From the NCBI RefSeq assembly GCF_003790525.1, contig NZ_CP033635.1: DNA of 64,000 nucleotides; one strand, 5' to 3'. Each line of letters opens with the position of its first letter. The first letter of the stretch is position 1. Positions 3,468-39,142 of this stretch are shown here, piece after piece. This DNA is from Escherichia coli. Its GTDB lineage: Bacteria > Pseudomonadota > Gammaproteobacteria > Enterobacterales > Enterobacteriaceae. Both the position numbers and the translations under genes were made by a program. The notes under the pieces were generated by a model that was given only the letters and a program-made list of their open reading frames with translations, was not told the DNA's origin and did no database searches.

Positions 3468-4488
3468 ATTCCTGATATTCAGGAAAACCACGAATCCGGG
3501 GGTTTTACTGGCGCGGTGTACACGGTGGAACGCATAGCGTTACCTGACTTATTGCATTGTAAAAAGTTAGAAAGGCACGGCCTGTAAGATGGGATGTTGT
3601 GAGTAGTTTAAAGCTACCCGCAAATTCTTTCGTTGTGCTGGCACAGGCGGTTAAACCGTCGGTAACTGGATAATCCCCACTGGGGGAAAAGCTGGCTACA
3701 TCCCTCACATCTGAGGACTGATAATGCGACATTGCGCTGGCTGGTGGGTGAGTTGCAGATTTGCAACTCGACCATGAAACTACGGAAACTACCCGTAGTT
3801 TGGGTAGTAAGAGTAACACCCAGATTTTGGGGCTTACTCGCGATACCCAAATAAAGGGTATCGGTGGAAGAAATATCGTTTCTCATATGTAAGTACCGAG
3901 GGCGGAATTCCGCCTTCGGTTACTTATTGTGCTCATTCACAGGGAGGGGCGGGTCAAATCTCTGTACCCTGACGTCTTCAGGACTGCCCGCCCCATCGAT
4001 TTTTTATACCCGCGAAAAATGAAAAACGCTTCACGCTGGTGGGCCTGATGCCGATATGGGGAGCCGCATACCGGAGAATATCCACCAGCACGGCAACAGC
4101 AGAATAGCCCCGACACAGAAAAACCACGAATATGGGGTTTTTGTTATGGCATGGTCATGATGACCGCCCCTGCTCTGAATGGTGGAAATCACCACGCAGA
4201 TCATCCACCAGCTTCATGACGGATAGCCGGAAAATGATAATGATTAAAGCGTGTTGATCTTTGTTCGCGGTTGTTCGATATTGTTCGTGAAGCGGTGTAG
4301 TTAATGGTGTAGTTAATATCACTGTTTTTGACGGGCTTGTTATTTGCAACATAATGAAAAATAAAGACTAATTAACTAAATGATATAAGATAGTTATCTA
4401 TCATGTGGAGTAGATTGGTCAGGCAAATAAGCTCTTGTCAGCGGCAGGGCGTTCTGCCGATAACCGTAACCGAAGATGATAACTGACA

Positions 4489-4809
4489 ATGGGTAAAACG
4501 AACGACTGGCTGGACTTTGATCAACTGGCGGAAGAAAAAGTTCGCGACGCGCTAAAACCGCCATCTATGTATAAAGTGATATTAGTCAATGATGATTACA
4601 CTCCGATGGAGTTTGTTATTGACGTGTTACAAAAATTCTTTTCTTATGATGTAGAACGTGCAACGCAATTGATGCTCGCTGTTCACTACCAGGGGAAGGC
4701 CATTTGCGGAGTCTTTACCGCCGAGGTTGCAGAAACCAAAGTGGCGATGGTGAACAAGTACGCGAGGGAGAATGAGCATCCATTGCTGTGTACGCTAGAA
4801 AAAGCCTGA
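4489..4809 (+). CDS. clpS: ATP-dependent Clp protease adaptor ClpS
   Basis: 106-aa translation matches ClpS. Confidence 0.95.
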
Positions 4810-4839
4810 ATGCAGGCATAAAAATTGGGGGAGGTGCCT

Positions 4840-7116
4840 ATGCTCAATCAAGAACTGGAACTCAGTTTAAATATGGCTTTCGCCAGAGCGCGCGAGCACC
4901 GTCATGAGTTTATGACCGTCGAGCACTTGTTACTGGCGCTGCTCAGTAACCCATCTGCCCGGGAGGCGCTGGAAGCGTGTTCTGTGGATTTGGTTGCGCT
5001 CCGTCAGGAACTGGAAGCCTTTATTGAACAAACCACACCCGTTCTGCCTGCCAGTGAAGAGGAGCGCGACACACAGCCGACGCTGAGTTTTCAGCGTGTA
5101 CTGCAACGTGCGGTCTTCCATGTCCAGTCCTCCGGTCGCAATGAGGTTACCGGTGCAAACGTTCTGGTCGCTATTTTTAGCGAACAGGAGTCGCAGGCGG
5201 CATATCTGTTGCGTAAACATGAAGTCAGCCGTCTCGATGTGGTGAACTTTATCTCTCATGGCACGCGTAAAGACGAGCCGACACAGTCTTCTGATCCTGG
5301 CAGCCAGCCAAACAGCGAAGAACAAGCTGGTGGGGAGGAACGTATGGAGAATTTCACGACGAACCTGAATCAGCTTGCGCGAGTGGGCGGAATCGACCCA
5401 CTGATTGGTCGTGAGAAGGAGCTGGAGCGTGCTATTCAGGTTCTCTGCCGTCGCCGTAAAAACAACCCGCTGCTGGTGGGGGAATCTGGTGTCGGTAAAA
5501 CCGCGATTGCGGAAGGTCTTGCCTGGCGAATTGTTCAGGGCGATGTGCCGGAAGTGATGGCTGACTGTACGATTTACTCTCTCGATATCGGTTCTCTGTT
5601 AGCGGGCACTAAATATCGCGGCGACTTTGAAAAACGTTTTAAAGCGTTGCTCAAGCAGCTGGAGCAGGACACTAACAGCATCCTGTTTATTGATGAGATC
5701 CACACCATTATCGGTGCGGGTGCAGCGTCTGGTGGTCAGGTCGATGCGGCTAACCTGATCAAACCGTTGCTCTCCAGCGGTAAAATTCGCGTAATTGGTT
5801 CGACAACCTATCAGGAGTTCAGCAACATTTTCGAGAAAGACCGTGCTCTGGCGCGTCGCTTCCAGAAAATTGATATTACTGAACCGTCGATCGAAGAAAC
5901 TGTTCAAATCATCAATGGCCTGAAACCGAAGTACGAAGCGCACCATGACGTGCGTTATACCGCAAAAGCGGTGCGTGCAGCGGTAGAGCTGGCGGTGAAA
6001 TACATTAACGATCGTCATCTGCCGGATAAAGCCATTGACGTTATCGACGAAGCGGGCGCTCGCGCACGCCTGATGCCGGTAAGCAAACGCAAGAAAACCG
6101 TTAATGTGGCGGATATTGAGTCTGTGGTGGCCCGTATTGCGCGCATTCCAGAGAAGAGTGTTTCGCAGAGTGACCGCGATACCCTGAAAAACCTCGGCGA
6201 TCGCCTGAAAATGCTGGTCTTCGGTCAGGATAAAGCCATTGAGGCGCTGACTGAAGCCATTAAGATGGCGCGTGCAGGTTTAGGTCACGAACATAAACCG
6301 GTCGGTTCGTTCCTGTTTGCCGGTCCTACCGGGGTCGGGAAAACAGAGGTGACGGTACAGCTTTCGAAAGCTTTGGGCATTGAGCTTCTGCGCTTTGATA
6401 TGTCCGAGTATATGGAACGCCATACCGTCAGCCGTCTGATTGGTGCGCCTCCGGGATACGTTGGTTTTGATCAGGGGGGGCTGCTGACCGATGCGGTCAT
6501 CAAGCATCCGCACGCGGTACTGCTGCTGGACGAAATCGAGAAAGCGCATCCGGACGTGTTCAATATTCTGTTGCAGGTGATGGACAACGGTACGCTGACC
6601 GATAACAACGGACGCAAAGCGGACTTCCGTAACGTGGTATTGGTGATGACCACCAACGCTGGGGTACGAGAAACTGAGCGTAAATCGATTGGTCTTATCC
6701 ATCAGGACAACAGCACCGATGCGATGGAAGAGATCAAGAAGATCTTTACGCCGGAGTTTCGTAACCGTCTCGACAACATTATCTGGTTCGATCATCTCTC
6801 CACCGACGTGATCCATCAGGTAGTGGATAAATTCATCGTCGAGTTGCAGGTTCAGCTGGATCAGAAAGGTGTTTCTCTGGAAGTGAGCCAGGAAGCGCGT
6901 AACTGGCTGGCCGAGAAAGGTTACGACCGGGCAATGGGCGCACGTCCGATGGCGCGTGTCATCCAGGACAACCTGAAAAAACCGCTCGCCAACGAACTGT
7001 TGTTTGGTTCGCTGGTGGACGGCGGTCAGGTGACGGTTGCGCTGGATAAAGAGAAAAATGAGCTGACTTACGGATTCCAGAGTGCACAAAAGCACAAGGC
7101 GGAAGCAGCGCATTAA
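4840..7116 (+). CDS. clpA: ATP-dependent Clp protease ATP-binding subunit ClpA
   Basis: Two AAA+ modules with Walker A GESGVGKT and GPTGVGKT; start [10 protein letters not shown] inside the track ORF. Confidence 0.95.
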
Positions 7117-25971: not shown

Positions 25972-26113
25972 AAAAATGCCCGCTTTCCGGCGGGCAAAAA
26001 ACAATTTAGGTCATATTTCATCATGGATAATTAAATACTTGCCCGTGGTTGCGGGAAAGTATCTGCCGTTAATCTACTTGCCTTATGATGTCCTCTCAAC
26101 CTGATTATTGTTC

Positions 26114-26365
26114 TTAAATATCAAGATTAATCTGAGTATTCCCCCTGTGAGATCCCGGAAAATCTTCCCACGGTATCCGCTCTGTACCCTGCGGCGACGG
26201 GGCGCGTTTTGATGTGAATTTGTTAAAACCCTCCAGTGTGGTAAAGCCGATCCCGCATTCGAGGTTATTGCACTGGTAGTACTTCAGGCGAACTGTGCCT
26301 GAATCATTTTCATTGCGACTGGTGCGGATACGTGCGGATGCACCGCATAGGGGACAACGGAACAT
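26114..26365 (-). CDS. ogr: Ogr/Delta-type zinc-finger late-gene activator
   Basis: MFRCPLCGASARIRTSR...YYQCNNLEC resembles P2 Ogr C2C2 finger. Confidence 0.85.
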   Translation of the reverse strand: MFRCPLCGASARIRTSRNENDSGTVRLKYYQCNNLECGIGFTTLEGFNKFTSKRAPSPQGTERIPWEDFPGSHRGNTQINLDI

Positions 26366-26408
26366 GGCTTCTCCTTATCTGGCTGAGTGGAGATGGCTCA
26401 TTTTAATT

Positions 26409-27500
26409 TTATCCGCCTGAATCTGCTATCCATTCGGGGATTTTCGCTTCCAGCTCCAGTTGTGTGGTGAAGCCGCTTTCATCTATGATGTGCTCCACCC
26501 TGGCAATAATCCAGTCCTGATTGTCCACCTCGCTTTTAAAACCTGTTACCCTGCCGTGCATTTCGGGATACAGGTCGGCACGACCCCGTGCCAGAGTGAT
26601 GGAGAATGCCGCTGCTCCCCGCTGTAACTCCTGCCACTTTGCCGCAGCTGCACGTCGTGCGGTTTCTTCATTCTGGTAAGTCCTGCGCAGAACGTAGACG
26701 TTCCCTTCCGCGCCTTCCATGTAATCACCCTCCCGGCTGCTGCTCTTCTCCTGTTTCTGTTTCCCGGCTTCCCTGCGTCGCTTCACGTTCACTTTTTTCT
26801 TGTGCCCGAACTTCAGATCGAGCCAGTGCGCCCGGACCCCCGTATACGCATCACGGTCAGCAATGCGAAAGCGGTGACTGTCGCCGCTGCTGCGGGTAAT
26901 GGCGAACGAAGGCAGGGCTCTTCCGTCCGGCCCGGTTCCGCCACCCGGCAGAATGAATAACAGGCTGCCGTTTTTTACGGTGGCAATCGCACCCAGCATT
27001 TCAGCCATGCGGGTCAGGAAGGATATATCGCTCTCTTCGGTCTGGTCAGCGTGGTCAATTTCGATATCCATGAGGATTTCGCTTATCTGTGTCTTCAGGC
27101 CGTAGCGGTGAGCGATGGCTGACACAACCTGTTTTACGGTCACGTCGTGCCAGGATACCTCCCGCCTCACGTTGAACTCTTCCCGAAAATCTGCGCTGCT
27201 GGCGGTGATGATCAGTTTATCTGGAGGTCCTTCCCACGCAACCTCATCAACGACGTAGGTGCCCTTGTTAACCAGTGATTCTCCTCGCCAGCCAATCATC
27301 ACTCTCAGGCGTGCGCCACGTGGTGGCAACTGTAACTGCCCGTCCGTATCGTCAAGGGTGAGGGTGACGCGGTCTGCCTCAAAGGCCCGGTTATCCGTCA
27401 GGGTCAGCGTCATGAGTCGCTCTGTGAGGTTTGCCAGTGTGTTGTTGTTGATGGTGATGTCGATATCCGGTGACGGAACGGTAACTGACAGCTCTTTCAT
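26409..27500 (-). CDS. D: P2 gpD-like tail protein
   Basis: TLTDNRAFEADRVTLTLDDTDGQ...SWHDVT...REGDYMEGAEGNV resemble P2 D; start at MKELSVT with SD AGGAGA. Confidence 0.85.
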   Translation of the reverse strand: MKELSVTVPSPDIDITINNNTLANLTERLMTLTLTDNRAFEADRVTLTLDDTDGQLQLPPRGARLRVMIGWRGESLVNKGTYVVDEVAWEGPPDKLIITASSADFREEFNVRREVSWHDVTVKQVVSAIAHRYGLKTQISEILMDIEIDHADQTEESDISFLTRMAEMLGAIATVKNGSLLFILPGGGTGPDGRALPSFAITRSSGDSHRFRIADRDAYTGVRAHWLDLKFGHKKKVNVKRRREAGKQKQEKSSSREGDYMEGAEGNVYVLRRTYQNEETARRAAAAKWQELQRGAAAFSITLARGRADLYPEMHGRVTGFKSEVDNQDWIIARVEHIIDESGFTTQLELEAKIPEWIADSGG

Positions 27501-27567
27501 GGTGTTCTCTCCTGGTGCGTTCTGTAATGGTTTCATGCACCGCAGCGGCGTTGAATGGCTGTTTTGT

Positions 27568-27585
27568 TGTCGCTGTCAGGAGACA
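27568..27585. promoter_or_regulatory. Ogr-type late-promoter dyad TGT-N12-ACA between divergent D and FI
   Basis: TGTTGTcgctgtcaggagACAACA, about 76 bp from the D ATG and 85 bp from the FI ATG. Confidence 0.5.
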
Positions 27586-27661
27586 ACATCAAAGGGGTGA
27601 GATTACCGCGTGTGTGGGTAATGATTACGCAAAATCAACCAGCCAGACAAGGGTGAAACAT

Positions 27662-28945
27662 ATGAGTGAAACACGCTTTCATGGTGCGCGCGTAAGGGAA
27701 AGTACCGGCCTTGCCACCGCCATTAATGATGTGGATTCCAGTGTTATTGGTATTGTGGCTACGGCAGATGACGCGGATGAAACTCTGTTCCCGCTGAACA
27801 AACCCACACTGCTGACCCGCGTCAGTGATGTGCTGGGTAAGGCCGGCACAAAGGGGACGCTTTACAAATCGCTTAAGGCTGTCGCCGACCAGGTGAGCAC
27901 GAAGGTGATTGTGGTGCGCGTTCCTGATGCCAGTTCTCAGGGCGCCCCGGATACAGGAGTTACATCATTCGGTCATCTGGATCCTGAAGACAGGGCATTT
28001 TTTGGTATTGATGAGTCTGAAGATGCACATCCTGTATACCCACACAAAACGCAGGACCAGTATGTCATTGGTGGCACGGATGGCGACGGTAATTATACCG
28101 GTATGTATGCACTTCTGATAGCTGAACAGGATGATGCCATCGGTTACCGTCCGCGCATCATCGCAGCTCCCGGACTGGATACTGAAGCTGTCACAAAATC
28201 CCTGTGTGTAATTGCAGAAAAACTTCGCGCATTTGTCTACGCGGGCTGTCACAACTGCAAGAAGCCCGCCGATGCAATCAGCTACCGCGCCAGATTTAAC
28301 GAGCGCGAACTTATGCTGGTCTGGCCGGACTTCATCGCCCATAACCCGAAATCCGGCGCTAATGAGGTCTTCCCGGCTGTGGCGTACGCCTGCGGTTTAC
28401 GTGCACGTATTGACCACGAACAGGGCTGGCATAAATCGCTGTCCAACGTGCCGGTAAGAAATGTGCTGGGTATTTCCAGCCCGGTGTTCTGGTCCCTTCA
28501 GTCCGAAGACAGCGATGCCAACAATCTCAACAACAAGGAAATCACTACCATCATTTGCCGTAACGGTTTCCGCTTCTGGGGCAACCGTACGCCGGAAACG
28601 AAGGCGTATATCTTTGAGGTGTACACGCGAACCGCTCAGGTGCTGGCTGATTCCATTGCGGAAGCGCAGTTTGAAACGATTGATGCCCCGCTGACCCCTG
28701 CTAATGTGAAAGACGTGTTAAGCGCAATTCGCGCAAAACTGGATGCGCTGGTTACGTCAGGACGTCTCATTGGTGCGGAGTGCTGGTATGACGTGGTGGA
28801 TAACAGCACCACGGAACTTCGTCAGGGACGCGTGCGTATCCGCTACAAGTACACGCCCGTTCCGCCGCTTGAGGATATGGAACTTTACCAGGCGTTTACT
28901 GATGAATTCTTTGGTCCTGCATTTGCGACGCTTGGAGGTGCTTAA
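27662..28945 (+). CDS. FI: Tail sheath protein (P2 FI-like)
   Basis: MSETRFHGARVRE...DETLFPLNKPTLL...KGTLYKSLKAVADQ resembles P2 FI. Confidence 0.85.
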   Translation: MSETRFHGARVRESTGLATAINDVDSSVIGIVATADDADETLFPLNKPTLLTRVSDVLGKAGTKGTLYKSLKAVADQVSTKVIVVRVPDASSQGAPDTGVTSFGHLDPEDRAFFGIDESEDAHPVYPHKTQDQYVIGGTDGDGNYTGMYALLIAEQDDAIGYRPRIIAAPGLDTEAVTKSLCVIAEKLRAFVYAGCHNCKKPADAISYRARFNERELMLVWPDFIAHNPKSGANEVFPAVAYACGLRARIDHEQGWHKSLSNVPVRNVLGISSPVFWSLQSEDSDANNLNNKEITTIICRNGFRFWGNRTPETKAYIFEVYTRTAQVLADSIAEAQFETIDAPLTPANVKDVLSAIRAKLDALVTSGRLIGAECWYDVVDNSTTELRQGRVRIRYKYTPVPPLEDMELYQAFTDEFFGPAFATLGGA

Positions 28946-29463
28946 TGGCCGTACCAAAAAATCTCAGGGTGTTCACGCTGTTTACTGACGGGGTGAACCA
29001 GATTGGCAGGGTGACCGGCTTCACGCCCCCCAAACTGACCCGTAAAACGGAAGCCTATCGCGGTGGTGGTATGGCCGGCGCGGTGAATATCGACCTTGGT
29101 CTGGATGACGGCGCGCTGGATGCGAGTTTCACCATGGGCGGGCCGACCCGCGAACTGTTCCTTAAGTACGGCGGCACGATCGACGGTACGCTGCTGCGCT
29201 TTGTCGGTGAGTACTACAACGATGAAGAGCAGAGCGACCTGTATGAAATTGAGCTTCGCGGCCGCGTGACGGAAATTGATACGGGGGAGGCAAAACAGGG
29301 TGAGGTCACGTCTCACACCTATGCGGTCAGGAGTACCTACTACAAACTCAGCATTAACGACCGTCCGGTGCTGGAGATTGATTTACTGAACCACATCGAA
29401 CGCAAGGACGGCAAAAACGTCTTCCCGGACCGCGTGCGCTCGGCGATTGGTCTTGGTGGTTAA
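28945..29463 (+). CDS. FII: Tail tube protein (P2 FII-like)
   Basis: 172 aa directly after the sheath gene. Confidence 0.8.
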   Translation: MAVPKNLRVFTLFTDGVNQIGRVTGFTPPKLTRKTEAYRGGGMAGAVNIDLGLDDGALDASFTMGGPTRELFLKYGGTIDGTLLRFVGEYYNDEEQSDLYEIELRGRVTEIDTGEAKQGEVTSHTYAVRSTYYKLSINDRPVLEIDLLNHIERKDGKNVFPDRVRSAIGLGG

Positions 29464-29513
29464 TGTTTCCCACGGCGGCGCGCGGCGTCGCCCCCTGATT
29501 TGAGGTTTTATGC

Positions 29514-29876
29514 ATGAAAGAAAATCCGGTTGTTGCCCCTGTTACTGACGGTGCTGATGCGGCGGACGTGACCAGTGAGCGCGGCGTGACGCTGAAAACG
29601 CCCCTTGTGCTCGGTAACAAAAAAATCACGTATGTGGAAATCACGCCTGCTGTACAGCAGGCCGGTTCACTGCGCGGGCTGTCACTGCTTGACGTGCTGA
29701 ACATGAAAACGGACGCGATGTTTGAGTTACTCCCGCGCGTCACTTCGCCGCGACTGGACGAGGTTCTGCTTAAGCGCATGGGGTCCGCTGATTTTATTCA
29801 GCTGTGCGGGGTGGCGGTTAATTTTTTGGCCGGTCAGGACTCTGGCGGGAAGAGCGGGGCGGCGACGGCAGGCTGA
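29514..29876 (+). CDS. E: Tail assembly chaperone (P2 E-like); E+E' product by -1 frameshift would extend to about 30040
   Basis: Position between tube and tape measure; slippery heptamer near the 3' end. Confidence 0.7.
   Translation: MKENPVVAPVTDGADAADVTSERGVTLKTPLVLGNKKITYVEITPAVQQAGSLRGLSLLDVLNMKTDAMFELLPRVTSPRLDEVLLKRMGSADFIQLCGVAVNFLAGQDSGGKSGAATAG
29822..29828 (+). promoter_or_regulatory. Candidate -1 programmed frameshift heptamer T_TTT_TTG (E/E')
   Basis: In-frame AAT TTT TTG; -1 frame continues about 70 codons to TGA at 30038-30040. Confidence 0.55.
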
Positions 29877-30026
29877 TAACCGTCGTGCCCTTTGAGCACA
29901 TTGAAGACTTTGTGGCGGATATCGCCGTTATTTTCAACTGGTCTCCCGCTGAAATCTTCCTGATGGATCCCGGCGAGGTGGTCGCCTGGCGTGAGCGGGC
30001 GGCCCTTCGCAGCGGGAACGCAGAGC

Positions 30027-33000
30027 ATGAAAACGCTTGATATACGGGTCGCCTTCAGCGCTGTTGACAGGCTGACCCGTCCCACCGAAAACGCCCGTCG
30101 CATGATGGGCCAGCTTGGCGACTCCATACAGAGAACGCAGGGTGCGATCAAAAACCTGGAACGCTACGCCCGTTCATTTGATCGCGCCCGCGAGGCTGCA
30201 AACAAGGCCGGAAACGGCATTGTCAGGGCGCAACGCCAGTTAAGCGCACTTCAGCAAATTCAGCGCGCCGGAACCGTGCTGTCTGACAAACAGAAAAAGC
30301 TGATGAACGATTTGAGCCTCAAACTTGAGCGTCTCAATGAGGTCCGTGCGCGTGAAGTTCAGCGAATGCGCGAACTGGGTGGTGAGCTGCGGCGCCACGG
30401 TATTGCGCTTTCCGGCAGTGACAACACCATTCAACAGGCCATACGGCGAACACAGCAATACAACGACCAGCTGGAACGCGAACGGCAGGCGCTGGCACGT
30501 GTCACGCAGGCACGCCAGCAATATTCCCGTGCTCAGGAGACGGCGGGAAAACTTAAAACGGTCGGACTTACGGCGGTTGGTACGGCGGCGGCAGGCGGCT
30601 ATGCGGCCGGACGTTTCCTGCAACCGGCGGTCAGTTTTGGTAAGGAGATGTCACGCGTCCAGGCGCTGACCCGTATTGACAAAAACAGTCCGCAGTTTAA
30701 GGCGCTGCGCGAACAGGCCATTAAGCTGGGCTCTGAAACGCAGTTTACCGCCGGTGATGCTGCCAGCGGTCAGGCGTTCCTTGCCATGGCCGGCTTCACA
30801 CCACAGGCCATACAGGCGGCGCTACCCGGCGTGCTTGATCTGGCAATGGCTGCAGGGATGGACCTGGGACAGACTGCCGATATCAGTTCGAATATCCTCA
30901 CACAGTTTGGTCTGTCCGCTGACCAGATGGATCGCGTGGGTGACACGCTGGCCGCCACCTTCACACGAACCAATACGGATCTCCGTTCACTGGGTGAAAC
31001 CATGAAGTACACGGGTCCGGTTGCAGCTTCACTTGGCCTGTCCCTTGAACAGGCGGCAGCCATGACGGGTGTCCTTGGCAGTGTGGGGATCCGTGGAAGT
31101 GATGCAGGTACGGCGCTGCGTGCCAGTCTGTCACGTCTGGTTGATCCGCCGAAGGCCGCTGCAATGGCACTGAAAGAGCTTGGCGTGGAGACGCAGAATG
31201 CTTACGGGAACATGCGCCGGATGGAAAATATCCTGAATGAGCTGTACCAGGCCACCCGAAAATACGGTAATGCCGCGCAGGTCTCCTTTTTCAGGGCTAT
31301 TGCCGGGCAGGAGTCCTATGTTTCCCTGATGAATCTTGTCACTGCGGCGGGGGAAAATAATCTTCCCCGTCTTACGCAGGAGATTGAACTGGCCACCGGG
31401 GAACTTAATCACACTGCCCGTGTTATGGCTGATAACCTGGACGGTGACCTGAAATCACTGAACAGCGCATGGGAAGGACTGCGTATCCGTGTCGCTGACC
31501 TCGTTGACGGGCCGCTGCGTTCTGTCACGCAGTCGTTCACCCGGGTTATTGCGAAAGTCACCGCGCTGGCTCAGGCGCACCCTGAACTGACAAAACAACT
31601 GCTGATTGCCGGTGGTGTACTGCTGGCTGCGGTTGCGGCCATGGGGGCGCTGTCACTTGCCACTGGTGTGTTGATGGGGCCGCTGGCAAAACTGCGTCTT
31701 GGGTTTGCCCTGCTGACCGGCACATCCGGCCTCGGTCGTGCGCTGCCGTTACTGACGCAGCTGCGCGGCGTACTCGGTGGTCCGCTGGGCGGTATCGGTG
31801 GCTGGCGCGTGCTGTTTGTCGGTATCACCTCCGGTGCCGGACGGTTTGCTGCACTGCTGGGCGTAGTTGCGGGGCGGCTTCGTGGTGTGCAGGCGGGACT
31901 TGGCGCGCTGCGTGGTGGTCTGCTGGCTGCGTTCACTTCACCTGGCGGCGCACTGATTTCACTGGGGCGCGGTATCGGAATACTGGCGCTCAGACTGTCA
32001 GGTCTGCCCGCACTGTGGGGGATGGTGAGTGGTGCGGTGGGCGCACTTGGCGGGGCGCTGGGTTTTCTGTTAAGTCCGGTGGGCCTTGTGGTGGCGACAC
32101 TGGTCGGTGCGGCAGTGCTTATCTGGCGGCACTGGGACCAGCTGAAGGCTGTCGTGGGCGGGTTCTTGTCCGGCCTGTGGCAGGGGCTTACGCCACTGCG
32201 CGAGGCTGTGGCACCACTGGGACCGCTGTTTGAGTATGTCGGGCAGACAATCGGGCGTGTGTGGCAGTGGTTCGTGGATTTGTTCGCGCCGGTAAGCACA
32301 ACAAAGGATGAGCTGGACAAGTGCACGGAAGCCGGGCGTACGTTCGGGCAGAAGGTAGGGGAGTTTATCAGCAATCTGGTGACCGGTCCGGTTACGCTGC
32401 TGATTGACTCATTAACCCGGGTGCTGGAAAAACTCGGGCTGATTCCGTCGGCGGTTGAGCGCGCCCGGAAAAAGGCGGAAGAACTAAAACAGAAGGAGTT
32501 GCTGAACGAGAAAGCTGCCATGCTTCTGGCGGATGTTAACGTCATTAATCCGCCGAAAAAGGACGAGGATAAAAAAGACGGCGAAAAACCCAAAGGGGGG
32601 CAACCACCCCTGACGGGGGAGAATACCGGCACTATGCGCCGCCTGAACAAAATCGTCGATAACACCGGTGGTCTGCTGGATGAGGCGAAACAGGCGAAAA
32701 AACGCGCTGGTCCCGGCGATATTATCTTTAAAAACCTGCCGGAAGCGCTGGCCGTTCGTGGTGAGTGGAAGGAGGAACGCTTTAACCGAGCAGCTTCCCT
32801 GTTACCGGGTAGTGTCAGTGAGCCACCTGTCAGACTGCCGCAGGTGCCGTCGGTCAGTGTGCCTTCGTTGCCACCGCTGCCAGCGCCACCGCCTGTCAGT
32901 GTTTCGCCGCTGATATCCACCACGGCGAACGTGTCGCCGGTCGTGAAGCCGGTGGTGTCCGTGAATAATGTGCCGGTTATTCCTCCGGTCGTCCGTCCGG

Positions 33001-33338
33001 TACTGTCCGGTAATATTACGCCAGTGGTTCCGCCGGTGATCAAACCGGTTATGACTCACGATGTCATGCCGACGTTCTCCCCGCTAATGACACCAGTGAT
33101 GGCGGCAACATCCCGTCCGGTGGTTGAGGCTGTGCGCCAGCCCATATCCCCCGCATCGCCCCGACCGCGCCAGAGTGAGCCGGCACCATGGGGATTAACT
33201 GGCGAACTGCATATTCACCTGCATGATGTTCACACGCAAAACCCGCGCGAACTGGCAAAAATGGTGGGTGATGCCGTCCGTGCGGAAATGGAACGCCGTA
33301 TCCGCCAGACAGTCGGTAGTTTCCGTGACAGAGATTAG
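30027..33338 (+). CDS. T: Tail tape measure protein (P2 T-like)
   Basis: About 1103 aa, coiled-coil N-terminus, Gly/Ala-rich hydrophobic middle; start MKTLDIRV. Confidence 0.85.
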   Translation: MKTLDIRVAFSAVDRLTRPTENARRMMGQLGDSIQRTQGAIKNLERYARSFDRAREAANKAGNGIVRAQRQLSALQQIQRAGTVLSDKQKKLMNDLSLKLERLNEVRAREVQRMRELGGELRRHGIALSGSDNTIQQAIRRTQQYNDQLERERQALARVTQARQQYSRAQETAGKLKTVGLTAVGTAAAGGYAAGRFLQPAVSFGKEMSRVQALTRIDKNSPQFKALREQAIKLGSETQFTAGDAASGQAFLAMAGFTPQAIQAALPGVLDLAMAAGMDLGQTADISSNILTQFGLSADQMDRVGDTLAATFTRTNTDLRSLGETMKYTGPVAASLGLSLEQAAAMTGVLGSVGIRGSDAGTALRASLSRLVDPPKAAAMALKELGVETQNAYGNMRRMENILNELYQATRKYGNAAQVSFFRAIAGQESYVSLMNLVTAAGENNLPRLTQEIELATGELNHTARVMADNLDGDLKSLNSAWEGLRIRVADLVDGPLRSVTQSFTRVIAKVTALAQAHPELTKQLLIAGGVLLAAVAAMGALSLATGVLMGPLAKLRLGFALLTGTSGLGRALPLLTQLRGVLGGPLGGIGGWRVLFVGITSGAGRFAALLGVVAGRLRGVQAGLGALRGGLLAAFTSPGGALISLGRGIGILALRLSGLPALWGMVSGAVGALGGALGFLLSPVGLVVATLVGAAVLIWRHWDQLKAVVGGFLSGLWQGLTPLREAVAPLGPLFEYVGQTIGRVWQWFVDLFAPVSTTKDELDKCTEAGRTFGQKVGEFISNLVTGPVTLLIDSLTRVLEKLGLIPSAVERARKKAEELKQKELLNEKAAMLLADVNVINPPKKDEDKKDGEKPKGGQPPLTGENTGTMRRLNKIVDNTGGLLDEAKQAKKRAGPGDIIFKNLPEALAVRGEWKEERFNRAASLLPGSVSEPPVRLPQVPSVSVPSLPPLPAPPPVSVSPLISTTANVSPVVKPVVSVNNVPVIPPVVRPVLSGNITPVVPPVIKPVMTHDVMPTFSPLMTPVMAATSRPVVEAVRQPISPASPRPRQSEPAPWGLTGELHIHLHDVHTQNPRELAKMVGDAVRAEMERRIRQTVGSFRDRD

Positions 33339-33349
33339 GAGTACCTCTC

Positions 33350-33838
33350 ATGATGATGATTTACGGCATGTTTGTTTTTGAGTTGCGTACGCTGCCTCAT
33401 CAACAACTGCAACATAATAAAACCTGGCGCCACGTTAAAAATGAACGCATCAATCGTTCGGCCAGCTGGCAGTATATCGGGGCGGGTGACGACCAGATCA
33501 CGTTGTCCGGTGTGCTTTATCCCGAAATTACCGGCGGTGAGGTTTCCCTCAGCCTTTTAACGACGCAGGCTTACACTGGTCGCCCATGGCCGCTGATTGA
33601 CGGTGTGGGGCAGATATACGGCATGTATGTGATAACGGCTGTCCGCACAACGCGAAGCGAACTTGACCGCCACGGTAAGGCCAAAAAAATTGAGTTCACT
33701 GTCAGTCTGGAACGCTGTGATGAGGATTTGCGGGAGAGTATGGCCTCGTCGCCGGTGTCTGATATGCTTTCGGGAATGAAAGGGAAGTTAAGTTCGGTCT
33801 GGAATACCACAGTAAGCGGCGTAAATGATCTGATGTGA
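33350..33838 (+). CDS. U: Tail protein (P2 U-like)
   Basis: MMMIYGMFVFELRTLPHQQLQ...ITLSGVLYPEITGG resembles P2 U. Confidence 0.75.
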   Translation: MMMIYGMFVFELRTLPHQQLQHNKTWRHVKNERINRSASWQYIGAGDDQITLSGVLYPEITGGEVSLSLLTTQAYTGRPWPLIDGVGQIYGMYVITAVRTTRSELDRHGKAKKIEFTVSLERCDEDLRESMASSPVSDMLSGMKGKLSSVWNTTVSGVNDLM

Positions 33839-33845
33839 AGGTAAT

Positions 33846-33865
33846 GTGCCGCATTCTTGCGGCAC
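33846..33865. terminator. Bidirectional hairpin between convergent U (+) and G (-)
   Basis: gtgccgcattcttgcggcac. Confidence 0.5.
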
Positions 33866-33908
33866 CTGCATGATGAATTATTTATGAATGCCCGTTCCTT
33901 TTCCCCGC

Positions 33909-34520
33909 TCATTCCATTTCTGGTGGTGTTTCCGGCCAGCTTATTTCAGGCTCCGTGCTGATATCCAGTGCGTTCAGCTCGTCGATATAATCCAGCACGG
34001 CATTCAGTTTTGCCGTTTCTTCTGGTGTCAGACTGCGACCTGCCCGCAACTTAAGGTTGATGAGGTCGATGGACTTCATCGCCTGATCCACCCGTTCCTT
34101 GCGTTGCTGTCTGGCAACCTCCAGCTCTTCGGCTTGCTGCCGTTCTGTATCGGTTACCCACGCCTCACCGTTCCAGGTATCCCATGGTGTGGCAGGCTGT
34201 TTTGTCGTTGTCCCTTCCGGGTAGTCACCTGGTTGGGTAATCTGGACCGGATTACCGTTCTCTGTGCTGTATACCGTCTCTCCACGATGATCGGGGACAT
34301 ACTCCCACCCGTCCAGCGTGGACGTCCGGCAAATCACGTAACCCGGCATTGCCTCTGGCGGGGCATCGGCGCATGAATGTGCCGGGGTACCCACCCCCAG
34401 GGCGAGATACTCCACAGAGGATGAGGTGTATTCCCGGGTTTCCTCATCATAGTGATATACAGTGATATCGCCTGCGAAAGTGGCGATACCGTTTTCATCC
34501 AGAACTGCAGTGTTACTCAT
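33909..34520 (-). CDS. G: Tail fiber assembly protein (P2 G-like)
   Basis: 203 aa downstream of the tail fiber gene. Confidence 0.7.
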   Translation of the reverse strand: MSNTAVLDENGIATFAGDITVYHYDEETREYTSSSVEYLALGVGTPAHSCADAPPEAMPGYVICRTSTLDGWEYVPDHRGETVYSTENGNPVQITQPGDYPEGTTTKQPATPWDTWNGEAWVTDTERQQAEELEVARQQRKERVDQAMKSIDLINLKLRAGRSLTPEETAKLNAVLDYIDELNALDISTEPEISWPETPPEME

Positions 34521-36754
34521 TAAACTGCCCTCACAATATAATTAAAAGCGATATTGCGCGGTCTGATCGCTATCCATCTGTCTTTTTCATTACTCACCAG
34601 CTTACCGGCTCTGGCTATTGCCCATCTGTCAACTGGTTTTGTGCCGTACAGGATGCCGTTACCGGTTCTGGGTTGATCAGGGGTTATGTTTATGATGTCG
34701 TTATCATGTGATGCAAATGAAATCCCTGCCTGAATATCTGCACCTCCCGCTACGCCGTGGTACGCCTGTATGGCGGTACAAATATATGTTGCTTCCTGTG
34801 TGGATAACAATAAGCGTCCCCTGTCAATCATTCGCAGGTCATCCCATCCACGAATAAATTCCCCGCGCAAATCTGGTAGCCTGAGGTCAGGGTAGGCCAC
34901 CGCCAGTTTTGGGTATTTTGTACGCGTGAATGCGGCACCGTTGCACTGTAACCACCCCTCAGGTGGTCTTGACGAAGGCCACGGAACGGGTACGCCAACT
35001 GGCAGCGTCGAGCCTTCTCCTAAACCAAAGTAATCAAGAATATCTTTTATGCTTTGTTTACCCATGATGACGCGGGCAACAGACGAAAAAACAGGGGCGT
35101 CTGTGATCTGAGCCCAGCGATGAGTGTGGGCTGCCGAGGCTTTGCTGTTGGCAAGGTCATACGCAGCTTTAACAGCTTTTGGTGTGGCCGCCAGCGTTTC
35201 GGAATTGCTGTTTGTGGCGCTGCTTAGCTGTACGATGCCTTTGCGTCCGGTGGTTGCATCCTGTCCTGTATACTTGCTCGTCAGCATATCGTGTAAGGCT
35301 TTAACCGCTTTGGGGGTGGCGGCCTCAGTCTCTGACTCACTGTTTGTGGCACTGCTCAGCTGTACGGTGCCTTTTGCCGTCAGCGAGGCTGATGGCACAC
35401 CTGTTATCTGATTCCACGGGTGGGTGTGGCTGGCGGGTGCTTTACCGGCTGCAAGGTCATATGCAGCCTTGACGGCTCTTGGTGTGGCCGCCAGCGTTTC
35501 GGAATTGCTGTTTGTATCGCTGCTCAGCTGTACGATGCCTTTGCGTCCAGTTGTTGCATCTGTGTTTGTCACCTCCACCCACTCTGACCATGGGCCGTTA
35601 CCGTTAAAGTTTCCGGTAACTGTCCTGATAAATTTTCGTGGCGGATCCCAGCTCGTGTATTCATGCTGGCAGAATCCCCATGCACCAACACGGATGCGTA
35701 ACTCTCCTGCCTTCTCTACAGGATAGTTTCTGTCTGTTCTCGCACCTGAGTCACTCTGCTGGTAATAATCTCCCGCGTCTTCCTTACGCCCCAGAGTGTT
35801 CAGGTCTGTTTCCCCCAGGGATGTTGTTGGCTTCACGAACGCCATGCTCAGTGCATCACTTACTGCCTTCGGTGTGGCCGCCAGTGTTTCGGAATTGCTG
35901 TTTGTGGCGCTGCTCAGCTGTACGATGCCTTTGCGTCCGGTGGTTGCATCCTGTCCTGTATACTTGCTCGTCACCATATCGTGTAAGGCTTTAACCGCTT
36001 TGGGGGTGGCCGCCTCAGTCTCTGACTCACTGTTTGTGGCACTGCTCAGCTGTACGGTGCCTTTTGCCGTCAGCGAGGCTGATGGCACACCAGTTATCTG
36101 ATTCCACGGGTGGGTGTGGCTGGCGGCTGCTTTACCGGCTGCAAGGTCATATGCAGCCTTGACGGCCTTCGGTGTGGCGGCCAGTGTTTCAGAGGTGCTG
36201 TTTGTGGCGCTGCTCAGTTGGGTGAATCCTTTTTCTGTCAGTGTCGCGTCAGGGTGGTTACGGGAACGTGCGTGTTCCGCCATTTTCTCATCAATGTAGT
36301 CCGTGGTCGGCAGAATTGTTGTTGTGTCCATGACCAGTTCCACCACGGCGTCGGAGGTGACGGTGATTACTGCACGGAATATCTGCGCCCGCCCTGAACC
36401 TTCCTCTCTGGTGGGCTTGTAACTTTCAGCGGTATTTCCTACTGCAATCATTGTACCTGTATCATCAAACACACCAATTTCACGCACCCAGAATCCGCCG
36501 GTTTCAGGAGGAATGACCAGTTCGGCGATGAGGCGGTTCGGGTTCTCCGGGTCGGTGAAGACGCGGTTGACAGACTGGCGCCAAACCTCATTGTAAAGCG
36601 ATGTCTGGTTTTTCTGCGGCTGACGAAGCTCTCCATTGCCGTCCCCTACAGCCATGTGCGTAAGGCGTACAGGTCTACCGCCAGGCGCCGTTGTTGCGGC
36701 CAGCTTTGCCAGCCCGATGTCGGTGATAAGGGTTCTGAATTTTCTCGTGCTCAT
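34520..36754 (-). CDS. H: Tail fiber protein (P2 H-like) with internal repeated modules
   Basis: 744 aa; repeated TGRKGIVQLSSATNSNSETLAATPKAVKAAYDLA and TAKGTVQLSSATNSESETEAATPKAVKALHDM blocks. Confidence 0.8.
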   Translation of the reverse strand: MSTRKFRTLITDIGLAKLAATTAPGGRPVRLTHMAVGDGNGELRQPQKNQTSLYNEVWRQSVNRVFTDPENPNRLIAELVIPPETGGFWVREIGVFDDTGTMIAVGNTAESYKPTREEGSGRAQIFRAVITVTSDAVVELVMDTTTILPTTDYIDEKMAEHARSRNHPDATLTEKGFTQLSSATNSTSETLAATPKAVKAAYDLAAGKAAASHTHPWNQITGVPSASLTAKGTVQLSSATNSESETEAATPKAVKALHDMVTSKYTGQDATTGRKGIVQLSSATNSNSETLAATPKAVSDALSMAFVKPTTSLGETDLNTLGRKEDAGDYYQQSDSGARTDRNYPVEKAGELRIRVGAWGFCQHEYTSWDPPRKFIRTVTGNFNGNGPWSEWVEVTNTDATTGRKGIVQLSSDTNSNSETLAATPRAVKAAYDLAAGKAPASHTHPWNQITGVPSASLTAKGTVQLSSATNSESETEAATPKAVKALHDMLTSKYTGQDATTGRKGIVQLSSATNSNSETLAATPKAVKAAYDLANSKASAAHTHRWAQITDAPVFSSVARVIMGKQSIKDILDYFGLGEGSTLPVGVPVPWPSSRPPEGWLQCNGAAFTRTKYPKLAVAYPDLRLPDLRGEFIRGWDDLRMIDRGRLLLSTQEATYICTAIQAYHGVAGGADIQAGISFASHDNDIINITPDQPRTGNGILYGTKPVDRWAIARAGKLVSNEKDRWIAIRPRNIAFNYIVRAV

Positions 36755-36757
36755 GGT

Positions 36758-37324
36758 TCAGTCTTCCGGGTAAATGGTGATGATGTCGCCGTCGTAACCT
36801 GCGGCAGCGGCGTAAATGGCACCGTGTATTTCCTGGATGATACTAAGCCCCACGAGGTGGCGGCTGACGGGGCGCGCATCGGCAATCAGACGCTCCATTT
36901 CTTCATGCAGCTCTTCACTTACTCCGGTTTCAAGTGTGCCAATCTCAATGGTGAAGGTCCCGGGCGAGCCGTCAAACTCCCACCATTCTGATACACGGAT
37001 GAGGTAGCCCAGTGGTTCAACGATGCGGCGGAGTGCACTGATGGTCCCTTTGTGGCGATGTATCATCCATGCGTCCCGAATCACCTGTCGCCTGGTCTCT
37101 TCCGGCCAGTTGCGGTCCCAGCTGTCAACGGAACATGCCCATGCAAGGTAGGGCAGGAGGTGAGCAGGGCAGCGGTCCGGCGACCACAGGGTGTCGGCGT
37201 CCACCGGTATGGTACTGATGCGTACTCCTGTCGCCTCTGTGGCGCGCATGAATGGCCCTGCGGACGGTGGAAGCAGTGATGTACTGTGCTGTGCGCTGTC
37301 TGTTTTTTTCCTGTCACTCATTGC
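36758..37324 (-). CDS. I: Baseplate protein (P2 I-like)
   Basis: Position and size; start chosen at MSDRKK. Confidence 0.7.
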   Translation of the reverse strand, partial: AMSDRKKTDSAQHSTSLLPPSAGPFMRATEATGVRISTIPVDADTLWSPDRCPAHLLPYLAWACSVDSWDRNWPEETRRQVIRDAWMIHRHKGTISALRRIVEPLGYLIRVSEWWEFDGSPGTFTIEIGTLETGVSEELHEEMERLIADARPVSRHLVGLSIIQEIHGAIYAAAAGYDGDIITIYPED

Positions 37325-38210
37325 GTCCTCCTTCGCTGATGCTGAATGTGGTACATCTGGCTGCCTGAGTGTCACTGATGGTGATGTTCTGCGTGGGTTT
37401 TATGACCTCAACGCGCTGGACACCGTGAACATGCAGCGCTGCAGTGATGGCTGACAGGGCCACGTCCTGACCGATACGGCCCTGGTCTGCCAGCCATGCA
37501 CGGAAAGCGGCGTCAGCGGCCGCAAGCATGGGTTCAGACTCCGGCCCTGGATAAAAATACAGCTTCGCTTCCATTACCCAGTTCACGATGGTAGCACTCT
37601 GCACAGTCAGGCGGTCGGCAACCGGGCGCACGTTCTCGGCATTCAGGGCGGTGCGCACCGTGTTCAGTAACGCCTCACCGGCGGTGCCGTCACCGTCTGC
37701 TGACAGGATGGAGACGGTGACTGTGGCCGGTGACGGGCTGATGGCGCGCGCATCACGGACAAGACCGCTTGCGCTCCGGGCAAAATACTCATACGCGCCG
37801 GACGGTCCGGCCACACTCAGGCCGTCCCAGGCTGACTGGGCACGCAGACGCAGCGATGTGTCGCTTTCCATCACTGCTTCCGTGGTATCAGTGGCCGGAT
37901 GAATGACCAGGCGGCGGGTGTTGTTGTTGGCGGCCAGATTGTCCAGGTCACTGCCCCGGCTGTGGCTGAGCATGCAGGCGCGGGCGGCTTCATTGATGCG
38001 CTGGCGAAGCAGCATTTCACGAAAGGCCATGGCCTGGGAAATGATGTTCAATGGCTCGGATTCCAGAGTAAGGGCACGGGTGACGGCGGCGCGGTATTCT
38101 TCCGGGAAGGAGCTCACCATCATGGTTTTAATGTCTGCCAGGATGGACTCAAAATCCGGCTGCGCGATGATGGCCGGTTCCGGTAACTGTGACAGGTCAA
38201 CGGAAGGCAT
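37314..38210 (-). CDS. J: Baseplate protein (P2 J-like)
   Basis: 298 aa in the V-W-J-I-H-G block. Confidence 0.75.
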   Translation of the reverse strand: MPSVDLSQLPEPAIIAQPDFESILADIKTMMVSSFPEEYRAAVTRALTLESEPLNIISQAMAFREMLLRQRINEAARACMLSHSRGSDLDNLAANNNTRRLVIHPATDTTEAVMESDTSLRLRAQSAWDGLSVAGPSGAYEYFARSASGLVRDARAISPSPATVTVSILSADGDGTAGEALLNTVRTALNAENVRPVADRLTVQSATIVNWVMEAKLYFYPGPESEPMLAAADAAFRAWLADQGRIGQDVALSAITAALHVHGVQRVEVIKPTQNITISDTQAARCTTFSISEGGRNE

Positions 38211-38213
38211 GAT

Positions 38214-38564
38214 TTACTCCCTCAGGGTGATACTGAATGTGATGTTCTGCATGGTTTCGGTGATGATGCCGGATAACGTCACCACGGCGCGTCCGCCAGC
38301 CCGCCAGTTCACATCGACGTTCTGCAGTGCTATACGGGGTTCATGGCGCGCCAGCGCAGTCACCGTGGCGCTCATGCACTGTAAACGCGTGGTGTCGTTC
38401 ATGGGCTCGTCGATGAGGTCCGGTAACAGGCTGCCGTATTCGCGGCGCATCACCCGGCTGCCTGGCGGTGTGGTCAGGATATCCCGCACGCTGTTTTTCA
38501 GGTGTTCGCTGTCGCTCAGCGTGCCGGTTCCCTGCGGGTTCATCCCCCTGTAAACAGCGGTCAT
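38214..38564 (-). CDS. W: Baseplate protein (P2 W-like)
   Basis: About 116 aa from MTAVYRGMNP; the track ORF extends upstream. Confidence 0.7.
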   Translation of the reverse strand: MTAVYRGMNPQGTGTLSDSEHLKNSVRDILTTPPGSRVMRREYGSLLPDLIDEPMNDTTRLQCMSATVTALARHEPRIALQNVDVNWRAGGRAVVTLSGIITETMQNITFSITLRE

Positions 38565-39142
38565 TGCGGGCCTCCCGTGGTGCCCGGGCCCGTCCTGACG
38601 CCACCGTGGGTGTGCGTATGAACGGTGATACCGTTGGATGTCAGGCTGCCGCCGCTGTGGGATATGCTGCCGCGCATCTCGCCGCCGTTCTGCACCTCCA
38701 GGGTGGCGGTGATAAGTTTGCGGGTACACACCACCTCCGACGTGTCCAGGGTGATGCGCGTGTCGGCCTGAATGCTGGCTGTTTTAATCCCCTTAACCTC
38801 CAGTGCACCGGCGTCTGCATCGTAGCGGAATACCGCACCGTCCGGTGCTGTCATGATGATTTCCTTCAGTGTGCTGCCCGGTGCCGGGATATCATCGCTC
38901 CAGAGGCTGCCGATGATTATCGCGGTTTCGGGATTACCACCGATACAGACGAACGCCACCTGTTCACCGGTGGCTGGCGGCACCCAGACACTGAACGCGC
39001 CCGCCCGCGCGGTGCTCCAGCGAAGCCAGCCTGTCTCCAGTCCGCCACTGCGCACCCGGACCTCCCAGGTCTGCGGGTTCACGTCGAAAATCACGCCGGT
39101 TCTGATGATGTTGCTGATAAGGCGCATTAATTCCGCGTTCAT
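38561..39142 (-). CDS. V: Baseplate spike/hub protein (P2 V-like)
   Basis: 193 aa; position. Confidence 0.75.
   Translation of the reverse strand: MNAELMRLISNIIRTGVIFDVNPQTWEVRVRSGGLETGWLRWSTARAGAFSVWVPPATGEQVAFVCIGGNPETAIIIGSLWSDDIPAPGSTLKEIIMTAPDGAVFRYDADAGALEVKGIKTASIQADTRITLDTSEVVCTRKLITATLEVQNGGEMRGSISHSGGSLTSNGITVHTHTHGGVRTGPGTTGGPQ

Follow-up and report, generated by a model that had tools for sequence, protein, structure and literature searches.

A modular, repeat-built tail-fibre gene with a pyocin-type knob domain in a P2-family prophage of Escherichia coli

Repeat-built fibres of related phages and pyocins

Which bacteria a phage or phage-derived particle can attack is determined by its tail fibres. 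Here we describe a fibre gene on the minus strand, at 34520..36754, of a stretch of 64,000 nucleotides (nt) of Escherichia coli DNA (contig NZ_CP033635.1 of assembly GCF_003790525.1; hereafter the window). This gene encodes the long tail fibre of an E. coli prophage of the P2 family that is integrated beside serS. In strain TUM1886 the identical locus is found inside a complete-looking P2-family prophage adjoining serS. The gene product of 744 amino acids (aa) consists of an N-terminal region, a shaft of six modules in the order L-S-K-L-S-T (long, short, knob-bearing and terminal types) and a tip. Natural alleles on the same N-terminus differ in the number and order of these modules. In our judgement this is best explained, with high probability, by a modular shaft whose repeats are the substrate of unequal exchange and thereby gave rise to the allelic series.

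The closest described relatives are the gpH homologues of P2-like phages (Peduovirus, Xuanwuvirus; P2, Wphi, P88). They share with our fibre the PF12571 domain, the gene position and PF03406 repeats after the N-terminus. Sequence identity to P2-like phages is 58–69% at the amino acid level over the N-terminus and some repeats (tblastn), and the match to P2 itself spans only ~297 aa of the P2 sequence, i.e. the N-terminus and a few repeats. None of the deposited phages covers at least 80% of the 744-aa protein in tblastn, and megablast against deposited phages gave two partial matches only. In essence, the gene is a prophage allele. P2-like phage genomes contain no match to the knob insert, to the L-S-K-L-S-T grammar or to this tip. 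Unlike in P2-like phages, the tail block from sheath to gpU lies on the opposite strand in this prophage.

R-type pyocin fibres (PA0620 and related; pdb entries 6cl5, 6cl6 and 6ct8) have in common with the fibre a knob, as judged by profile and fold, and HxH motifs in the shaft. They contain two tandem knobs beside a lectin-like C-terminal domain, whereas here one knob is located mid-shaft between repeat blocks, and the fibre ends in a collar and a gp37-like tip with no lectin domain. Pyocin fibres are trimeric fibres of P2-like contractile devices; their length is adjustable by repeat duplication and their HxH motifs bind iron (PMC6116203). Deletions of whole repeats and whole knobs occur in Pseudomonas syringae tailocin fibres (PMC12208367). 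In the type 1 fibres of these tailocins the repeat unit is a shaft with two knobs. They belong to another host and another sequence family, and no PF03406 module grammar of L and S type is described for them.

The PF03406 repeat family seen here also builds lambda Stf, the S fibres of Mu and P1 and E. coli prophage fibres. As the Pf2 repeat, it is known from lambda Stf and O157 prophage fibres with modules of variable length (PMC3368898). Mu and P1 use an invertase; the locus described here is without one. Horizontal exchange at conserved fibre segments is classical and was reportedly described by Haggard-Ljungquist et al. in 1992 and Sandmeier in 1994. Compared with such mosaic fibres, the exchange considered here takes place in a single prophage lineage, is resolved to whole modules and has one crossover mapped to 17 nt. 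With T4 gp37 the fibre shares an alignable collar. The tip, however, is much shorter here (~90 aa between the collar strands), and the T4 tip carries a run of HxH iron sites, whereas our HxH motifs are found in the shaft modules. Host-range changes of T4 by duplication of small repeated segments of gp37 were reportedly described by Tetart et al. in 1996. Our search of the literature, open-access in scope and hence weak evidence, found no paper that describes the L/S/K module grammar for P2-like prophages of E. coli. The locus is a clear and well-resolved example of the mosaic, repeat-built fibres already known and not a new kind of system. It confirms established ideas on fibre mosaicism and overturns none.

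Modules, knob and direct repeats of the fibre gene

The gene is of P2 gpH type and 2235 nt long, with its ATG at 36754 and the stop codon TAA at 34520–34522. An earlier note, written from the DNA letters alone, had called it a tail-fibre gene. This identity is borne out by the domains, by the genes for gpJ, gpI and a chaperone around it and by the RefSeq name 'tail fiber protein' (WP_103856004.1). PF12571 (Phage_tail_fib) covers aa 4–151 with E = 6.4e-50 and 169.5 bits against a cut-off of 23. PF03406 (Phage_fiber_2) matches in six stretches (E = 6.4e-104, 339.8 bits, cut-off 22), and PF07484 (Collar) is found at aa 587–634 (E = 2.7e-13). Piecewise, the 744-aa fibre is matched by 61 PHROG tail-fibre families. 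Fibre protein S of phage Mu (5yvq, 8ju3) aligns to the repeat with E = 1.4e-7, and the T4 gp37 tip structure 2xgf aligns to aa 582–639 with E = 3.6e-12. A second stretch of 2xgf, at aa 732–742 and comprising the final strand NIAFNYIVR, is weak and below threshold.

Module starts were set at the recurring motif G-x-x-Q-L-S-S, which gives starts at aa 176, 232, 276, 406, 462 and 506. Every module opens with the same motif of ~28 aa and has a length divisible by 3. Type L has 56 aa and carries an HxH motif; type S has 44 aa and is devoid of it; type K has 130 aa, composed of a repeat followed by a non-repeat insert of ~95 aa, the knob; and the terminal repeat T runs into the tip. All of the following positions are on the minus strand. 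The N-terminal baseplate-attachment region (aa 1–175, 36230..36754) contains PF12571 and has a constant length in the full-length alleles that were parsed. It is followed by module L1 (aa 176–231, 36062..36229), a PF03406 repeat with an HxH-bearing tail that reads HTH at aa 213, and by S2 (aa 232–275, 35930..36061), a short PF03406 module with no HxH. Module K3 (aa 276–405, 35540..35929) combines a PF03406 repeat with the inserted globular knob. The second long module, L4 (aa 406–461, 35372..35539), has its HTH at aa 443, and the second short module, S5 (aa 462–505, 35240..35371), is 2 nt off S2. T6 (aa 506–561, 35072..35239; HTH at aa 543) is the terminal PF03406 repeat before the tip and matches the repeat of Mu protein S. 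The remaining C-terminal region (aa 562–744, 34523..35071) consists of a linker, the Collar and a predicted receptor-binding tip. Needle-type serial HxH sites are absent from aa 562–744, the sole HxH motifs being those of the shaft modules (aa 213, 443 and 543). These motifs may bind a metal ion in the trimer.

According to its sequence profile and its structural model, the insert of K3 (approximately aa 305–398, 35561..35842 on the minus strand) is a pyocin-type knob domain. The insert alone, used as a single-sequence query, gave only noise or nothing in Pfam and PDB. A scan of 1.84 billion representative proteins, however, returned 254 relatives at E <= 0.001, many of which contain the domain two to five times. 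A profile built on 43 homologous sequences matches the R2/R1 pyocin fibres (6ct8, E = 2.9e-6; 6cl6, 1.2e-5; 6cl5, 1.8e-4), and the pyocin residues aligned to it are those of the Knob2 region. The AlphaFold2 model (predicted local distance difference test, pLDDT, of 95) has five strands in an antiparallel beta-sheet fold. Its best Foldseek matches are again 6cl6, 6cl5 and 6ct8, with a probability of 1.00, a TMq of 0.71 and an r.m.s.d. of ~3.2 Å, at E-values of only 0.01–0.02. Knob2 is among the most variable regions of the pyocin fibre, and a part in shaping the spectrum of killing has been proposed for it (PMC6116203), and a structural atlas describes the pyocin knob as a mobile pseudo-domain across fibre classes (PMC12143355). 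By analogy, the knob may bind a saccharide of the cell surface.

At the DNA level, the L-S pair before the insert and the L-S pair after it constitute a near-identical repeat. A repeat finder reported a two-copy direct repeat of 300 nt and 96% identity (35163–35462 and 35853–36152, spacing 690) along with a family of four 160-nt copies spaced 300, 390 and 300 nt apart. In a dot-plot, as the earlier note had suggested, the repeat is visible and the 690-nt diagonal stretches over 401 nt at 88.8%. Copy 1 (35839..36239, minus strand; gene nt 516–916) comprises L1, S2 and the start of K3, and copy 2 (35149..35549, minus strand; gene nt 1206–1606) comprises L4, S5 and the start of T6. In the core of the duplication (gene nt 601–840) 58–59 of every 60 positions match, corresponding to ~98% identity. 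Exact runs of 80, 58, 39, 36, 34 and 29 nt occur at the offset of 690, with more at offsets of 300 and 390; all repeat offsets are multiples of 3. No exact repeat longer than 15 nt arose in 200 composition-preserving shuffles of the gene. The long internal direct repeats that the note had seen in 34520–36754 are thus real. Its positions for them, 35124–35411 and 35796–36101, lie on the repeat and in the right 690-nt register, but understate its extent. Modules of 90–100 aa, as it described them, correspond to an L-S pair (56 + 44 = 100 aa), within which the finer unit is the PF03406 repeat of ~42 aa, present six times. Tandem Repeats Finder gave nothing on 34000–37300, since the units are interleaved types and not a head-to-tail array.

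Both intervals given by the note coincide exactly with two open reading frames (ORFs) on the opposite, plus strand. They belong to a series of antisense ORFs of 61–101 codons that face the modules (35124–35411, 35424–35726, 35796–36101 and 36114–36299, all plus strand) and presumably stay open through the Ala/Thr/Ser-rich codon usage of the shaft. One could suspect that the ORFs at 35124–35411 and 35796–36101 are real duplicated genes, because they run for 95 and 101 codons without a stop and are near-identical to each other. However, they lie wholly inside a strongly supported sense gene, and their mutual likeness mirrors the duplication on the sense strand. RefSeq annotates no gene there. 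Three of the antisense ORFs were scanned against Pfam without a credible family match; the only hits of the two at 35124–35411 and 35796–36101 were below the curated cut-offs (YlaH, 15.7–15.9 bits against 27). We therefore regard genuine antisense genes as very improbable.

Short-read assemblies are classically prone to error at long, near-identical repeats, and some of the variant alleles described below are known from short draft contigs alone. A spurious expansion or collapse during assembly, named by the earlier note as what would overturn its proposal, is nevertheless the least credible of all explanations considered here. The same 2235-nt gene, at 99.7–100% identity, is found in 22 records of complete E. 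coli genomes, which differ in laboratory, host and country; with duplicate deposits of one clone among them, they represent an estimated ~15 separate strains. Proteins of 744 aa that are identical or almost so are encoded on hundreds of contigs, and the fibre family as a whole is carried by ~640 complete E. coli genomes. Furthermore, the reading frame is intact, and every module is a well-formed Pfam repeat.

The near-identity of the L-S blocks could in principle be a matter of protein constraint, but synonymous divergence (dS) argues otherwise. In the core, the two L-S blocks here differ by a dS of 0.05, and those of AR_0085, an allele from a second P2-like lineage, by 0.04. Equivalent blocks compared between the two lineages have a dS of 0.99–1.13 and a nonsynonymous divergence (dN) of only ~0.1. 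Low dS within a gene against a dS of ~1 between lineages is not explained by constraint on the protein. Rather, these sequence comparisons indicate recent duplication or gene conversion of the L-S blocks.

Natural alleles and proposed exchange between modules

For comparison with other alleles, the 120 best-scoring homologues were parsed out of at least 8000 matches; they are ranked by score and do not reflect population frequencies. Nine module orders were found among them, and the full-length ones all have the 175-aa N-terminus and a C-terminal segment of 239 aa. Two further orders, those of SCU-115 and CS5L, lie beyond the 120 best. In total, 11 module orders are known on the same N-terminus, with lengths of 626–901 aa, 5–10 repeats and the knob present or absent. 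The alleles always differ by whole in-frame modules. SCU-115 (626 aa) has the order L-S-L-L-T and no knob, Br_112 (756 aa) L-L-S-K-L-T, and CM2 and 23CRST011 (812 aa each) L-L-S-K-L-L-T, while CS5L (901 aa) has ten repeats. Module K, absent from SCU-115, is found at different positions in other alleles, with 2 to 4 modules before the knob and 2 to 5 between knob and tip. Among alleles with the same tip, only length and presence of the knob vary. Seven of the 11 module orders are found on complete or chromosome-scale assemblies.

That recombination changes the length of the fibre, as the earlier note had proposed, is supported by three features of this comparison. Firstly, the flanks are near-identical while whole modules differ. 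The N- and C-terminal flanks of the gene are 98.7–100% identical in nucleotides in seven alleles, and the N-terminal region is 99.2–100% identical across the seven. Secondly, the 4000 nt upstream of the SCU-115 gene contain a single mismatch, and yet its shaft is different and knob-less. Thirdly, an identical L module of 168 nt recurs at different places: it occupies position 4 here, position 2 in Br_112, CM2, P0004 and 23CRST011, and in P0004 both positions 2 and 5. Different alleles also meet in one cell. TUM9803 and Ch1 each contain two sibling P2-family prophages on one chromosome, which carry a 744-aa and an 812-aa allele.

We propose the following mechanism. The L-S pairs flanking the knob would have been made near-identical by recent duplication or gene conversion, and their exact tracts of up to 80 nt could serve homologous unequal exchange within the gene. 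The shared start of ~28 aa, together with lengths divisible by 3, means that out-of-register pairing gives in-frame fibres differing by whole modules. Exchange may also take place between sibling P2-like prophages, which can share one chromosome. The outcome would be alleles with a different shaft length, presence of the knob and spacing between knob and tip; now and then, the whole cassette of shaft, tip and chaperone would be replaced. Folding of the tip is presumably aided by the translationally coupled Tfa chaperone. The recombination pathway may be RecA or a phage-encoded one, and the resulting changes in length or knob might alter adsorption or host range.

Replacement of the cassette is exemplified by CS5L. 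At informative sites this allele is of window type up to nt 552 (21 of 21) and of the type of the second lineage from nt 570 on (23 of 23). This switch places the crossover in a 17-nt interval (gene nt 553–569), inside repeat 1, the equivalent of L1. The segment of the second lineage includes the shaft and a divergent tip and continues to near the end of tfa, the chaperone gene. By its sequence, CS5L is thus a clean chimera of this N-terminus with the shaft, tip and chaperone of another E. coli lineage. The suggestion in the earlier note that recombination also changes receptor specificity is supported at the level of sequence by this swap of tip and chaperone. Same-tip alleles change just in length or knob.

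The second P2-like lineage itself (G749, ST131 and AR_0085; loci L010, L011 and L012) has arrays of L and S that vary in number, with L-S-L-S-L-T in AR_0085 versus L-S-L-S-L-L-T in ST131. Just past tfa, at ~4087–5900 in each of the three loci, it contains a gene annotated as 'recombinase family protein' and an inverted partial fibre gene. This downstream element is apparently an invertible host-range segment in the style of Mu and P1.

A related P2-like lineage with a recombinase and an inverted alternative fibre C-terminus past tfa raises the question whether the variation described here is due to programmed switching, i.e. a Mu/P1-type invertible segment, a diversity-generating retroelement or a phase-variable contingency locus. 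At the locus studied here, however, neither a recombinase nor an inverted fibre fragment is found; tfa is followed by 70 nt and then by the convergent gpU. Inverted repeats in 34000–37300 are short and weak only (18–19 nt, 78–79% complementary). The annotation of the identical TUM1886 locus, to a distance of 20 kb left and right, lists no reverse transcriptase, as a diversity-generating retroelement would need, the window ends farther out being unscanned. The differences from repeat to repeat are ordinary mixed substitutions and do not form an adenine-specific pattern. Tandem Repeats Finder detected no short tandem repeats of the phase-variable kind; the units here measure 132–390 nt, and all repeat offsets keep the frame. 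Programmed switching is therefore highly unlikely.

A more serious alternative, though still rather unlikely in our estimation, is that the repeats are purely structural. The differences between alleles would then result from RecA-independent slippage or template switching, or represent old neutral polymorphism, with no bearing on host range. Several observations agree with it: the tip is the same in all alleles of the same lineage, the sequence of the knob is invariant, and the allele described here is stable over the 22 genome records. Moreover, slippage between direct repeats fits the data as well as homologous exchange does. Old polymorphism, on the other hand, clashes with the near-identical flanks, in particular with the one mismatch in 4 kb for SCU-115, and with the dS of 0.05 between paralogous blocks. 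Slippage does not account for CS5L, as a chimera of lineages at a dS of ~1 needs inter-molecular exchange. Neutrality is less plausible given the role of Knob2 in pyocins, since loss of the knob and an altered spacing between knob and tip are plausible functional changes.

Unequal exchange between modules thus remains the preferred explanation, but a number of points weigh against it. No recombination event was directly observed, and the support is comparative. Four of the 11 orders (LSKLSLT, LLSLKLT, LSKLLLT and LSKLSLLT) are found only on draft contigs (4.7–196 kb), in which repeats may have been wrongly assembled from short reads. The 744-aa allele has the same length in all 22 complete-genome records, which speaks for evolutionary variation and not for rapid switching, with events that are rare on epidemiological time-scales. 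No single-step path connects most pairs of alleles, e.g. LSKLST to LSLLT needs at least two events; consequently, the histories of the alleles are composite. Finally, the protein sequence of the knob is invariant in the alleles compared, so there is no hint of diversifying selection on it here.

A further-reaching and rather speculative idea, to which we give little weight, is that the shaft acts as an adjustable ruler: the knob in mid-shaft and the tip at the distal end would be two binding sites whose spacing is tuned by selection to the thickness or type of O-antigen or capsule. If this were true, the shuffling of modules would adapt the host range and leave the tip untouched. The E. coli allelic series is ready material for asking whether fibre length and knob position affect adsorption. 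In addition, the locus offers natural, frame-safe parts (L, S and knob) and a mapped junction for swapping tip and chaperone, which could be copied for the engineering of P2-type particles or pyocins.

Neighbouring genes and annotation

Upstream and downstream genes follow the order gpJ, gpI, fibre and chaperone, all on the minus strand. Baseplate_J (gpJ) is located at 37314–38210 and Tail_P2_I (gpI) at 36758–37375, both assigned by Pfam and gene order. The tail-fibre assembly chaperone gene tfa (33909..34520, minus strand) encodes 203 aa and matches PF02413 Caudo_TAP (E = 4.5e-27) and phrog_105 (E = 2e-87). The stop codon of the fibre gene and the ATG of tfa share 1 nt (TAATG), and the two genes are translationally coupled. 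The convergent gpU gene lies 70 nt past tfa, across a gap at 33839–33908. A scan of this gap for terminators and promoters gave one weak site, located inside tfa, which is no more than in shuffled sequences.

In canonical P2 both tail blocks have one orientation. Here the genes for sheath, tube, gpE, tape-measure protein and gpU (~26000–33838, plus strand) are opposite in strand to V-W-J-I-H-tfa (33909–38700, minus strand). The two opposed blocks converge on the 70-nt gap, and this layout is kept in all sibling prophages seen.

In NCBI and UniRef, several records (e.g. P0030, P0040 and P0069) give the exact 744-aa fibre the name 'short-chain fatty acid transporter'. This label looks like a propagated mis-annotation.

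Gene calls are also variable for the tape-measure protein. Its ORF at 29991–33338 (plus strand) encodes 1115 aa, of which only aa 240–439 match PhageMin_Tail. The last ~370 aa (~32223–33338) are rich in Pro and Val, with stretches such as PPLPAPPPVSV, PVVKPVV and PPVVRPV; no tandem repeat was detected in the DNA of this region. In five other genomes the NCBI pipeline treats the orthologue as a pseudogene 'missing C-terminus' and leaves ~1.1 kb unannotated. At the TUM9803 and Ch1 loci, gpU and gpE are separated by ~3.5 kb devoid of any gene call, the expected place of the tape-measure gene. In a sibling prophage, another gene call makes the tape-measure protein 1173 aa long.

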